Below, one piece after another: positions 8,352 to 13,513 of a stretch of DNA of 64,000 nucleotides. The position numbers were made by a program, and so were the translations under genes. Where the stretch lies: NCBI GenBank assembly GCA_038891095.1, contig JAWAEV010000001.1, positions 1 through 64,000 on the forward strand, written 5' to 3'. Within the stretch, counting starts at the first letter, position 1. Every line of letters starts with the position of its first letter. The DNA comes from Candidatus Altiarchaeota archaeon (GTDB lineage: Archaea; Altiarchaeota; Altiarchaeia; IMC4; QMZM01). Under the pieces are notes generated by a model. The model worked only from the letters and a program-made list of their open reading frames with translations, had not been told where the DNA came from and searched no databases.

Positions 8352-9221
8352 TCAAACTTTAACTCCCTCCTTTTTAAATCTCTCGAGAAGTGCACTCAAA
8401 AATTCTGAGATAATTTCATCTTTTTTATGAATTTCTAAAATCCAAAAACGGACACTAAATGTTATTTTTGAATCTGAGATTTCTGAGATTAAAACTCTTG
8501 GCTTGAAAATTTCCATATTTAAGGGCTTATCTGCAAAAATTTTTTTAATATGTGGTAATTGTAGTATTCTCTCTATAGAGGATTTTCCTTTTTTAGTTGT
8601 AGTTGAGAGTATACTTCTATTTTCATTTGCAACTTCTAAAATAATTTCCCTGACTTTTCCATATTCTGGGGTATAGGGAATTTTTATTTGTATTGGCACT
8701 TCTGTAAAACCTGCCTTTGTGTAGTTTATTATCTTTGAGGATAAAAGTGCTGAATTTGGAATATAGACCAATTTACCATCCATGTCCCTTATAGTTGTGC
8801 TCGTAAGGGTTATGTCTTTAACTCTGCCTATCCCTGTATCTGGAACTCCACCAACCTTAACCCAATCCTCAATTTGTATTTGTCCTTGAAATGAAATTAA
8901 AATTCCTGCAATCACGTTTTGTATTATCTGCTGTGAAGAAAATGCAATTGCGATACCAATAATTCCTAATGAAGCCACAAGAGCAGTTAAATCTAAACCA
9001 AGCTCATAGTATATACCATAATACAATCCCGCAAAGATAAAAAAATATTGTAAAATTCTTGCGACAATTTTTGAATTTCTAATTGATATCCTTTCATCAA
9101 AAAATCTTCTCGCGAGAAAGTTAACTAAATTTCCGAAAATAAGCGTGATTATGAATGTAAAAAGGAATAACAGAAAATTTTCTATTGTTACATTACCTAT
9201 GAGAATTTTACTTTCTGCCAT
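8352..9221 (-). CDS. mscS: Small-conductance mechanosensitive channel (MscS family)
   Basis: Three TM helices, LGIIGIAIAFSSQQIIQNVIAG, G.V.DITLTSTTIR..DGKLVYIPNS, IINYT. Confidence 0.92.
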   Translation of the reverse strand: MAESKILIGNVTIENFLLFLFTFIITLIFGNLVNFLARRFFDERISIRNSKIVARILQYFFIFAGLYYGIYYELGLDLTALVASLGIIGIAIAFSSQQIIQNVIAGILISFQGQIQIEDWVKVGGVPDTGIGRVKDITLTSTTIRDMDGKLVYIPNSALLSSKIINYTKAGFTEVPIQIKIPYTPEYGKVREIILEVANENRSILSTTTKKGKSSIERILQLPHIKKIFADKPLNMEIFKPRVLISEISDSKITFSVRFWILEIHKKDEIISEFLSALLERFKKEGVKV

Positions 9222-10366: not shown

Positions 10367-11131
10367 ATGAAATATAAGATGCCAACCAACACAAAAAATA
10401 AAAAAAAGGAAATATTTCCTGGAGTTGAAATTCATGGATTAACACTCTACTTAAAAAAAGAAAAAGTTCTTGTAATAGGAGACTTACATCTGGGCTATGA
10501 AGAAGAACTCAATTCTTTAGGTTTCCTTGTACCTAAATTTCAATACAGGGAGATTATCACATATCTAAAAAAAATTTTTTCTAAAATTCCTTCTCTTGAG
10601 AAAATTGTTATTAATGGTGATTTAAAGCACGAATTTGGTAGGATTTCCAAACAAGAATGGAACGAAGTCCTTTCTTTTTTAGATTTTTTGAAAAGTAATG
10701 TTAACGAAATTTTTTTGATAAAGGGAAATCACGACACAATTCTCGGACCTTTAGCTGAAAGAAAAGAATTAAAAGTTTTGGAATATTTCTATATTGCTAA
10801 TGAGAAAATTTATATTTGCCATGGACATAAAATCCCTGATGATGAAAATTTTGAAAGATCTAAGGTTGTTATTATTGCGCATGATCATCCTGCTCTTGGT
10901 TTGAGGGAAGGCCTCAGAGTTGAGAAAGTTAAATGCTTTCTGAAAGGAATGTGGAACGAAAAAATTCTAATTCAAATTCCTTCTTTAAATTTTGTTGTTG
11001 AAGGTTCAGATATCTCTCAAGAAAAAATGCTCTCACCATTTATGAATGAGATAGAAAATTTTGACATATATTGTATAGAAAGAGAGAATTTATTCTACTT
11101 TGGTAAAGTAAAACATATCTATAAACATTAA
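10367..11131 (+). CDS. Metallophosphoesterase, COG1407 (SbcD/Mre11-related, often Lhr-associated)
   Basis: DLHLG, GDLKHEFG, KGNHD, HGH, AHDHP motifs. Confidence 0.85.
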   Translation: MKYKMPTNTKNKKKEIFPGVEIHGLTLYLKKEKVLVIGDLHLGYEEELNSLGFLVPKFQYREIITYLKKIFSKIPSLEKIVINGDLKHEFGRISKQEWNEVLSFLDFLKSNVNEIFLIKGNHDTILGPLAERKELKVLEYFYIANEKIYICHGHKIPDDENFERSKVVIIAHDHPALGLREGLRVEKVKCFLKGMWNEKILIQIPSLNFVVEGSDISQEKMLSPFMNEIENFDIYCIERENLFYFGKVKHIYKH

Positions 11132-11176
11132 AGCCCAATTATACTTTCCAACGGAAGCACAACAAAAAGAATTAGA

Positions 11177-11266
11177 TTATTTCTTTTTGTGTCTCATCTT
11201 TTTTCTTCTTTTCTTAAGTTTATGCTTCCGCATCTTTTGTATTTTTCTTTTTCTACCGCATGGCAT
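11177..11266 (-). CDS. 29-aa basic protein of the AURKAIP1/COX24 (bS22/mS38 ribosomal protein)-like family
   Basis: Manual translation MPCGRKRKIQKMRKHKLKKRRKKMRHKKK*. It fits the MPxGxKRKxxKMxxHKxKKRRxxxRHKKK pattern of Bacteroidota-type bS22. It lies wholly in an intergenic gap and is below the ORF-track length cutoff. Confidence 0.82.
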   Translation of the reverse strand: MPCGRKRKIQKMRKHKLKKRRKKMRHKKK

Positions 11267-11335
11267 AATTTATTTTAGGAAATTTATAAATAAAAATATA
11301 TTGTTTTTTTAGATGAAATTACAATTAGTTTACAT

Positions 11336-13513
11336 ATGAAAAAAAATTTGCTCGCGCTTGGAATTTTTTACTTTGCATTCCTTCTAATTTTTTCAATTTT
11401 TGTTTTTGGAATAGAAGAAGAGCAGTTCAATGAGAAATGGAATTACACCACTGGTGGTATGATAACAGATCTATGCATTGGTGATTTTGATAACGATGGT
11501 AAAAAAGAAATTGCTACAGTAAAATCAATTGAGACATTAGTTGGCTCCGGTGGAGATTTTAGAATAGTGAACTCAACTGGGAATTTAATTTGGAAAAAAG
11601 ATATTGGATGTAAAATTTATTCAATCTTTTGTGAAGATATAGATAACGATGGCTATGATGAAATTCTTGTTGGCTCATGCACTCATTTGCATGTTTTCAA
11701 TTATACTCAAGAAAAAGAATGGCAATTTTTCACTGATCATGGTGCTGTGAAGATAATTTTTCCTTTTGATTTTGATAATGATGGAAAAAAGGAGTTATTG
11801 ATTGCTACTACTGACCCAATGTCGAAAAGAAATAACAACATTTACCTCGTAGATAACAGAGGACAGTTAATATGGAAAAAAAATTTACCTTCTTCTCCAA
11901 ATTCAATAGATGTCAAGGATATAAATTCTGATGGTTTAAAGGATATCATTGTAGCTTCTGGCATTTCATCTATTGGAATTTCTGCATACAAAGGTTGGAT
12001 TACGGTTTATAATGAAAACGGCACTTTACAATGGGAAGTGAGAATTAAAAATGGTGCAGAAAGTGTAAAAATTACCGAAATAAATAGGGATAAAAAACCT
12101 GAGATAATTGTTGGGTCACTTTATACAATTTACTTGTTTGATAGTAATGGAAATGAAAAAAAGCAGTATAATATAAGTGGTCATGCATATGCCTTAGAAG
12201 TAATTAATGCCAAAGATGAAATTCTCTTGATCGTAGGAACAAATGATCTAATTGCATTAGATTCGAATTTCAAATTTAAGTGGAGTTATAATACTGCTGA
12301 TGAGGTATATGACATAAAAATTTTTGATATAGACAATGATGGAAATGAAGAAATTTTTGCCGTTTCTGATAGAGTTTACTTGCTAAGCAATGGAGGTAAA
12401 TTACTCTGGCAATCTCCAAAAGCAGCGGGGGTGAAAAAAATTGTAATTGATGATTTAGAAAATGATAAGTACAATGAGATAATTTTTGGCACTCTTGACG
12501 GGAAGATTTATGTATATGAAACAAAAGGGAATGTAAAGGGGAAACTTGCTGAAGAGAATTTCTTAAAGGCAGAAAAGGCATTTAACGCTGGTAATTATGA
12601 TAACTCAACCAACTATGCAAAAATTGCTAAGAAACTATATGAAGAGTTGAATATGAATTCTAAAGCAAAAGAGTGTGATGAGCTGATTAAAAAAATAAAT
12701 GCAATTATCTCAGAAGATTTAAGAAATAAAAAAGAGGCAGATGAAAATTACAACAAATCAATGAATTTTTTTATGAATGAAAATTTCAGTTCTGCATTAA
12801 CTTTCGCCAGAAAGGCAAAATTGTTGTATTCTGGAATAAAAAAGAAAACTCCAGAAATTGAGAAAAACATTGAAAATTGTGATATCATTGTTAAGAATTC
12901 TATCGATGGTTTAAAGTTAAGGGCTGCTTTATTATATGAAAATGCTACATATTTATACGGAACTAAAAATTATGGACTTTCTTTGAATTTATCAAGAGAG
13001 ATTTTAGATATTGGAATACTACTCAAAGACAAGAATATTAGCTTAAAAGCAAATTTAATGATCGCAAATTCTCTGTGCAAAATTTCTGAAATAGAATATA
13101 GAGAGAGTAGAATAGAGAGTGCAGTGTTAAATGCAAAAGAGGCGATTGAAATTTACAATGAGTTAGGGAATGAAACAGCAGGTAATGAAATTTTAGAATG
13201 CTCCAAAATTCTTGAGAAAATTGAAAAAAAACAAAGCTATGCAGAAAAACCAAAGGAAGTTAACATGAGTAATATTACAATAATTCTCATTGTTTTAATT
13301 TTAGCAATATTTTTAGCTGTGTTTTTCATTAGAAAAAAACATTATATAGTTAGTAAAGATACTACTAAAACTGAAGTCGAAAATAAAGTTGAAGCCGTGG
13401 AAATAAAAACAATAGATGAACTAAAAGAAAAATCCGAAAAGAAGGAACTTGAACCAATAAAAAAAGATAAGTTTAAAGGTATTGGAAGATCTCTAAAGCC
13501 TTTAAAGTTATAA
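11336..13513 (+). CDS. Membrane-anchored FG-GAP/VCBS beta-propeller plus TPR-like helical protein
   Basis: Signal peptide, about 7 DxDxDGxxE(I/L) repeats (GDFDNDGKKEI, EDIDNDGYDEI, FDFDNDGKKEL, FDIDNDGNEEI), helical A/K/E-rich repeats, C-terminal TM and charged tail. Confidence 0.8.
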   Translation: MKKNLLALGIFYFAFLLIFSIFVFGIEEEQFNEKWNYTTGGMITDLCIGDFDNDGKKEIATVKSIETLVGSGGDFRIVNSTGNLIWKKDIGCKIYSIFCEDIDNDGYDEILVGSCTHLHVFNYTQEKEWQFFTDHGAVKIIFPFDFDNDGKKELLIATTDPMSKRNNNIYLVDNRGQLIWKKNLPSSPNSIDVKDINSDGLKDIIVASGISSIGISAYKGWITVYNENGTLQWEVRIKNGAESVKITEINRDKKPEIIVGSLYTIYLFDSNGNEKKQYNISGHAYALEVINAKDEILLIVGTNDLIALDSNFKFKWSYNTADEVYDIKIFDIDNDGNEEIFAVSDRVYLLSNGGKLLWQSPKAAGVKKIVIDDLENDKYNEIIFGTLDGKIYVYETKGNVKGKLAEENFLKAEKAFNAGNYDNSTNYAKIAKKLYEELNMNSKAKECDELIKKINAIISEDLRNKKEADENYNKSMNFFMNENFSSALTFARKAKLLYSGIKKKTPEIEKNIENCDIIVKNSIDGLKLRAALLYENATYLYGTKNYGLSLNLSREILDIGILLKDKNISLKANLMIANSLCKISEIEYRESRIESAVLNAKEAIEIYNELGNETAGNEILECSKILEKIEKKQSYAEKPKEVNMSNITIILIVLILAIFLAVFFIRKKHYIVSKDTTKTEVENKVEAVEIKTIDELKEKSEKKELEPIKKDKFKGIGRSLKPLKL

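Follow-up and report, generated by a model that had tools for sequence, protein, structure and literature searches.

By definition, a ribosomal protein with the prefix "b" occurs in bacteria alone, and to our knowledge archaeal ribosomes have been described as built from universal and archaeal/eukaryotic proteins only. Solved bS22 is a polybasic peptide of 28 to 30 residues, made up of a hook at the N-terminus and a bent helix, that lies buried beside the decoding center and provides an extra intersubunit bridge. It sits in a pocket of 16S rRNA helices h2, h27, h44, and h45 and contacts H68 or H70 of the 23S rRNA, as described in 2 reports (PMC10618245, PMC12123416). The P. gingivalis form is given there as 30 residues long (PMC12123416), and the Borrelia burgdorferi protein, which touches H68, is described as unannotated in its genome and found only through cryo-EM density; mass spectrometry in that study picked up all ribosomal proteins but bS22 (PMC10618245).

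In the published structures, bS22, eL41, and mS38 share one pocket (PMC10618245, PMC7005279, PMC12123416, PMC10085706). The actinobacterial bS22 proteins (M. smegmatis, C. acnes; PF08213) and the mitochondrial mS38/Cox24/AURKAIP1 proteins, the latter much longer than the archaeal peptide described below, are placed there as well. Archaeal eL41, also called eS32 (P. abyssi; P. furiosus, 37-residue form), is likewise tiny and polybasic, with an N-terminal hook inserted between h27, h44, and h45 and a C-terminal helix, as stated in 2 structural papers (PMC7005279, PMC11724365). It is patchily distributed among archaea.

A stand-alone 29-codon gene under purifying selection

The window analyzed here is a stretch of 64,000 nucleotides, positions 1 to 64,000 of contig JAWAEV010000001.1 from a Candidatus Altiarchaeota archaeon (GCA_038891095.1). 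A preliminary description of this DNA had pointed to a clean 29-codon ORF in an intergenic slot of its own. The frame is there, at positions 11177-11266 and on the minus strand, which that description had left unstated; it opens with ATG and closes with TAA. The features of the locus are as follows.

11177..11266, minus strand: bS22-type CDS MPCGRKRKIQKMRKHKLKKRRKKMRHKKK, 29 codons plus TAA stop (ORF listing, conservation, pN/pS, and bS22 chain matches)
11283..11296, minus strand: AT-rich TATA-box-like element TTTTTATTTATAAA, −30 to −17 from the ATG (read from the sequence)
11160..11171, minus strand: T-rich tract TTCTTTTTGTTG (coding strand), 6 to 17 nt past the stop (read from the sequence)

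The gene is flanked by a metallophosphoesterase gene (calcineurin-type phosphoesterase, 10367-11131, plus strand) and an FG-GAP beta-propeller gene (11336-13513, plus strand), beyond which lie CorA and MscS-type channel genes. Lysine and arginine make up 62% of the 29 residues (18 K or R). When all 15 contigs of the 958-kb genome were scanned for micro-ORFs of 18 to 60 codons with at least 45% Lys+Arg, this ORF ranked first among 27 K/R-rich candidates and did not overlap any long frame.

The frame is conserved well beyond this genome, a check that the preliminary description had proposed. A tblastn-type search recovered it in 39 of 41 related genomes; across the phylum, a profile built from 20 orthologs matched 50 of 61 genomes at E ≤ 1, and a broader profile matched 48 of 61 at E ≤ 0.01, which we take as the real count. 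A peptide 90% identical to the one studied here is encoded by a record labeled "Candidatus Altiarchaeales archaeon" (L042). Across the 20 orthologs, 18 of the 29 positions are invariant, with variation within the phylum that includes an MGVSRKKKR... N-terminus in 2 genera and an ...RSQHSR tail in one family. Among 30 distinct orthologous DNA sequences, pN/pS is 0.13 (pS 0.78, pN 0.10), and nucleotide identity falls from 77% within the ORF to 35% over the preceding 45 nt and 27% over the following 60 nt. The ORF is a genuine gene under purifying selection. Its neighbors are shared by at most 10 of 30 loci, and only within sub-clades, so that the gene is best viewed as a stand-alone unit; it lies outside any ribosomal operon.

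The expectation that so short a gene would be hidden from gene callers held in part. A library of representative predicted proteins contains 409 clusters of the bS22-like family at E ≤ 0.001, many of them with extended N- or C-termini, and the entries often have wrong, extended starts. The same library nevertheless includes P0002, a 30-residue sequence of the archaeal type, and some gene callers therefore do find the gene. In 2 other representative proteins, P0001 and P0003, the first 19 residues are internally duplicated. A related arrangement of DNA occurs at locus L113 (G009:C123:1700-2560), where 3 tandem copies of the promoter and the first 8 codons (MPCGRKRH) lie 155 bp apart at locus positions 263, 418, and 573, and only the last runs into an intact bS22-like gene.

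Expression signals and neighboring DNA

In archaeal promoters the TATA box is centered about 26 to 27 nt before the transcription start. A TATA-like hexamer begins 31 to 27 nt before the ATG in 24 of the 30 distinct orthologous loci of the phylum, and at such a distance from the ATG a TATA box would imply a leaderless or nearly leaderless mRNA. From this geometry we infer that TTTTTATTTATAAA acts as the promoter and that the transcript is leaderless. Past the stop codon, TTCTTTTTGTTG is a possible oligo-T archaeal terminator, the position of such a tract not being conserved among the orthologs.

The FG-GAP gene at 11336-13513 runs divergently from the bS22-like gene and adjoins its promoter. 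Its product, a protein of 725 residues in which hydrophobic segments at the two termini enclose FG-GAP/beta-propeller repeats and a helical region, looks like a surface protein. A single Rfam match at E ≤ 1 was found between positions 9000 and 13500, a sub-threshold hit at 12743-12794 to a Dictyostelium RNA, which we judged to be due to chance.

Across the whole genome, and with crude start calls, Shine-Dalgarno-like 5-mers were found at −20 to −4 of 50 of 787 long ORFs versus 28 in a control window, a comparison too crude to count as evidence; the 3′ end of the 16S rRNA of the Altiarchaeota genome reads ...GGATCACCTCCA. Translation initiation in this organism may be largely independent of Shine-Dalgarno pairing. 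Start codons of bS22-like frames also vary in other small-genome archaea. At loci L125 and L127 (G277 and G372), no ATG, GTG, or TTG precedes PCGKKRK and the frame reads ...EEIIIPCGKK..., which suggests that an ATT/ATA-type start is used, and at L122 (G161) GTG is the sole available start, a codon also reported for the bS22 gene of Borrelia.

An archaeal host with an otherwise normal ribosome

The genome comprises 958,546 bases in 15 contigs, is 93.65% complete, and has about 31% G+C. The bS22-like gene lies on a contig of 382,704 bases that also carries eL15 and, about 56 kb from the gene, a small-subunit rRNA gene scoring 1485 bits against the archaeal model versus 1159 against the bacterial one. 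The genome encodes eS4 as well as eL15, and searches of it for bS16 and bS6 found neither; these markers separated the control genomes cleanly, with eS4 and eL15 in 4 of 4 archaea and bS16 and bS6 in 10 of 10 bacteria. The ribosome is thus otherwise a normal archaeal one, and the archaeal identity that the preliminary description had given the genome is borne out. The bacterial host implied by the prefix of bS22, which is a point of nomenclature and not of structure or sequence, is accordingly replaced here by an archaeon.

Such a sequence could also be an artefact, either a frame that arose by chance or a piece of bacterial DNA binned with an archaeal genome by mistake. The ORF is very short, AT-rich DNA yields many frames of this kind, and the nearest solved relatives are bacterial. 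Against this stand the long contig with its archaeal 16S rRNA gene and eL15, the strong purifying selection, the archaeal TATA-like box at a fixed distance, and the presence of the gene, with a sequence signature specific to archaea, in 48 of the phylum's 61 genomes. In a maximum likelihood tree of 73 distinct peptides, moreover, a single branch (SH-aLRT 86, from 31 columns) separates the 24 bacterial rows from the 49 archaeal rows. We therefore regard an artefact as exceedingly improbable. The tree has 31 columns, and the search pattern biased its bacterial sample, so that it settles neither the origin of the family nor the direction of any transfer.

The peptide belongs with bS22

When the peptide was searched with phmmer against 177,635 distinct PDB sequences, only 3 chains matched, each end to end over residues 1-28 or 1-29: 8fmw_V, "30S ribosomal protein bS22" (E = 2.3e-5), 9i5v_10, "AURKAIP1/COX24 domain-containing protein" (E = 0.0097), and 7jil_5, "ribosomal protein S22" (E = 0.03). 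A family profile of 63 archaeal and bacterial rows gave E = 2e-10 to 1e-9 for the same 3 chains and E = 0.1 for 8a22_BC, a chain of mS38; chains of eL41 and of actinobacterial bS22 did not appear at E ≤ 10 in this search of the PDB. The sequence is of low complexity, which makes E-values less trustworthy than usual. Over positions 9-29, however, 24 distinct bacterial homologs agree with the peptide at a mean of 11.8 of 21 residues, compared with 4.8 ± 1.4 for composition-preserving shuffles, none of which reached the observed value in 20,000 trials; the bacterial rows in this comparison had been pre-selected by similarity, which does not apply to the PDB search. Taken with these limits of complexity and selection, the end-to-end similarity to solved bS22 chains goes beyond composition.

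The size and composition of the peptide, 29 residues with a mass of about 3.7 kDa and 62% Lys/Arg, fall within the range of bS22 (28 to 33 residues, more than half Lys/Arg), and the bS22 signature MPxG-[KR]-K-R-K...K-[MI]..H-K.K-K is complete in it. The family as a whole follows the scaffold M1-P-C/S/N-G-[KR]-K-R-K ... K11-[MI]12 .. H15-K16. K-K19 ... R25-H-K-K, in which M1, K6, H15, and K16 are the same in every one of the 63 rows. Bacterial homologs from species genomes, among the matches listed, are 59% to 69% identical to the peptide and come from records labeled Marinimicrobia/Neomarinimicrobiota/Fidelibacterota, Planctomycetales, Omnitrophota, Bacteroidota (Cardinium, Saprospiraceae), and Treponema/Spirochaetaceae.

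The closest solved relative by phmmer, Borrelia bS22 (8FMW chain V, gene bb0822), has 28 residues to the 29 of the archaeal peptide and aligns with it from end to end. The 2 have an identical N-terminus, MPCGRKRK, and share H15-K16, K19, and R25-H26-K-K, and the Lys/Arg content of the Borrelia protein, about 61%, is comparable. They differ in the middle, where the bacterial type reads HKRKK and the archaeal type HKLKKRR, and in their expression: the Borrelia mRNA, in a bacterial setting, starts with GUG, and the archaeal frame opens with ATG downstream of a TATA-like box of archaeal type. The bS22 of Flavobacterium johnsoniae (7JIL chain 5) and 9I5V chain 10, both of 30 residues and of the form MP[SN]GKKRKRHK[VM]ATHKRKKR..NRHKKKK, align with archaeal residues 1-29; they have Ser or Asn at position 3, in contrast to the archaeal Cys, and a middle of the bacterial type.

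Pfam family PF08213 (COX24_C) recognizes the KM..HK..KK-type motif weakly. It matches the peptide at 10.4 bits (E = 0.63), under its gathering threshold of 23 bits, and a 30-residue ortholog at 13.1 bits; at E ≤ 1 it matches 35 of the 63 family members, among them bacterial sequences, the lowest E being 0.0034. A whole-genome search with PF08213 gave no match at E ≤ 10, and neither did the same search of a Bacteroides control genome, so that the model appears insensitive to this subtype of bS22. NCBIfam offered no family for the peptide. In the ESM Atlas, 22 of the 30 clusters nearest to a 30-residue ortholog are COX24_C (score 0.96), with a recognition value below the strong level. Because the Pfam match is weak, the assignment to bS22 rests on similarity to the solved chains. 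The preliminary description had named a bS22-type sequence and proposed PF08213 as its check: the first is upheld by the 3 end-to-end PDB matches, 2 of them named bS22 and one AURKAIP1/COX24, and the second yielded a match that exists and falls short of threshold. Judged by sequence, the 29-codon gene adds an archaeal member to the known family of bS22 proteins.

A real polybasic microprotein might also act away from the ribosome, by coating the nucleoid or RNA or as an antimicrobial or cell-penetrating peptide. In one paper, synthetic bS22 and eL41 peptides are discussed as active off the ribosome (PMC10085706), and the stand-alone setting of the gene, with no ribosomal operon around it and neighbors kept in no more than a third of the 30 loci, would suit such a role. 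The position-by-position match to chains solved in ribosomes nonetheless exceeds composition, and the near invariance of the peptide across an order-level radiation and across phyla is what would be expected of packing on conserved rRNA. The occurrence of the gene only where eL41 was not found (see below) also points to the ribosome. We consider a non-ribosomal function improbable, and treat the peptide in what follows as a bS22 protein.

Searches for eL41 and its relation to bS22

The preliminary description had suggested that the genome be checked for eL41/eS32, and had raised 2 ideas: that this lineage may have a bS22-type peptide instead of eS32, and that the peptide could be an evolutionary link to eS32. 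PF05162 matched nothing in the genome and did not match the peptide at E ≤ 10; neither PF05162, nor an archaeal eL41 profile, nor a de novo scan found eL41/eS32 in the genome. The profile is a 7-row alignment built from loci recovered with PF05162, which finds real eL41 across a sample of 401 archaeal genomes, for instance in 17 of 17 genomes of one family. Within the phylum PF05162 gave only weak matches, and the 5 that were inspected are alternative frames of longer genes. With the bS22-like gene present and eL41/eS32 not found, the first idea agrees with the data, ribosome binding being predicted from the family assignment.

The second idea fared worse. The 7 archaeal eL41 rows share an invariant core, W-K-K...R-W-K-W..K-K-R..R-R-L-K-R, which is absent from the bS22-like peptide, and neither PF05162 nor the archaeal eL41 profile places the peptide in eL41, whose compact core pattern (RWKW.KKR.RRLKR, preceded by W..) it lacks. 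An hhalign comparison of the 63-row bS22-like profile with the 7-row eL41 alignment returned a probability of 0.6% and an E of 0.09 over 14 columns. The 2 families are, at the level of sequence, not detectably related, and an evolutionary link to eS32 is unsupported. It might still be held that the peptide is a divergent eL41, sharing ancestry with the archaeal protein and having drifted to resemble bS22. The 2 are of the same size class and charge and do not overlap in distribution, and for some authors bS22, eL41, and mS38 are one universal protein, "uS22" (PMC10085706). Such drift is at odds with the hhalign result, with the failure of either PDB search to return an eL41 chain at E ≤ 10, and with the combination of a missing eL41 core and a complete bS22 signature. 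We hold this reading to be highly improbable and retain the assignment to bS22.

Several eL41 candidates were considered and set aside. Beyond the phylum, the archaeal eL41 profile matched 150 of 340 genomes; within it, 2 of 61. A match in G027 (17.7 bits, inside a 117-residue frame) was judged spurious. The eL41-like gene on G052:C397 is real, and its contig, a short one, is probably mis-binned, because the neighboring 16S rRNA is 70% identical to that of the Altiarchaeota genome and the bin is 6% contaminated and has no bS22-like gene. This gene (L142, G052:C397:1-1631) encodes 34 residues (MKRSSRRWKKKNQMRWKW...), and the archaeal 16S rRNA gene lies about 235 bp downstream of it. An intergenic 28-codon ORF on contig C7 (4822-4908, minus strand; 46% K+R) was dropped as an eL41 candidate, having no PDB match and only patchy matches at E ≤ 1 in 13 of 61 genomes, nearly all of them weak (best outside its own genome, E = 0.001).

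Among the eL41 loci themselves, 3 from one archaeal family (L130, L132, and L133) have a conserved N-terminal extension, IKRSSRRWKKKG, with no canonical start upstream of it. The first ATG is the later Met of RMRWKW, so either a non-canonical start would be used or a short form would be made, a point that bears on the N-terminal hook described for Pyrococcus eL41.

Distribution across archaea

We searched 652 archaeal genomes, a 401-genome sample that includes the 61 of the phylum and a 251-genome sample of a second phylum. Outside the Altiarchaeota genome's phylum, the bS22-like profile gave 13 matches among 340 archaea, 12 of which were kept; the other, in G339 (17.9 bits, in a 178-residue frame), was judged spurious. 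One of the 12 is a truncated form of 21 residues and 11 are clear homologs, from genomes of 0.8 to 1.6 Mb in 8 families. Most of the carriers outside the phylum have the archaeal signature ...KHKLKKRRKKMRH... instead of the bacterial ...HKRKKRLR.NRH....

None of these 12 carriers is among the 152 eL41-positive genomes, and the 48 carriers within the phylum have no credible eL41. In the second phylum, also of small genomes and the one to which carrier G152 belongs, the bS22-like gene occurs in 75 of 251 genomes and is close to all-or-none by family (11/11, 20/20, 9/9, and 23/28 versus 0/50, 0/24, and 0/15). The only eL41 match in these 251 genomes, in G569 (19.5 bits, with an internal TGA), is not credible. 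In all there are 131 carriers, none with a credible eL41; these counts include related genomes, which are not independent observations, and the complementarity is partly a whole-phylum trait.

The 176 non-carriers of the second phylum also yielded no detectable eL41, and one family of the Altiarchaeota genome's phylum (0/8) has neither gene. The pattern is thus one of bS22-like genes only where eL41 was not found, and not a strict choice of one or the other; in many archaea, then, the pocket may simply be unoccupied.

Proposed role in the ribosome

We think it likely that the peptide represents the bS22 family in archaea and occupies the small-subunit pocket between h27, h44, and h45. In lineages whose genomes yielded no eL41, it probably serves as a ribosomal protein of the small subunit. 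The peptide would be made from a leaderless mRNA and would bind the equivalent pocket of the archaeal 16S rRNA; once bound, it may stabilize h44/h45, add a bridge to the 50S subunit, and aid subunit association. In lineages without eL41 it could in this way do the job of eL41. Ribosome binding has been shown for Borrelia bS22, whereas for the archaeal peptide we infer it, together with the pocket and the functional equivalence to eL41, from the family assignment. Deletion of bS22 in M. smegmatis is tolerated and alters aminoglycoside sensitivity (PMC10081302), and the role may therefore be modulatory and not essential.

A broader scenario is that a bS22/mS38-type peptide was the ancient occupant of the pocket, pre-LUCA or early archaeal, inherited vertically in Altiarchaeota and some DPANN-type archaea, and that eL41/eS32 took its place later in eukaryotes and other archaea; bS22 would then be no bacterial invention. 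We put this forward as a speculative and rather unlikely account.

Implications

In the openly accessible literature on bS22 and archaea, as far as the searched portions of it extend, we found no report of bS22 in an archaeon, and no paper in the literature searched treated bS22 together with DPANN. So far the bS22 family has been described only in bacteria, and an archaeal member is new. A bS22-type gene with native archaeal expression signals, present in 2 archaeal phyla and several further families, breaks the rule of the "b" prefix for one protein, and it bears on the published proposal that bS22, eL41, and mS38 are one universal small-subunit protein. For some lineages at least, it offers a possible answer to the patchiness of archaeal eL41 that has been called "puzzling" in one study (PMC7005279). 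The family is also an additional marker, one that gene callers are apt to overlook or to give the wrong start, and provides a candidate sequence for density beside h44 in any DPANN or Altiarchaeota ribosome structure. If a bS22/mS38-type peptide did prove to be the ancient occupant of the pocket, the family would merit a universal name, and these archaea would be its missing third domain.
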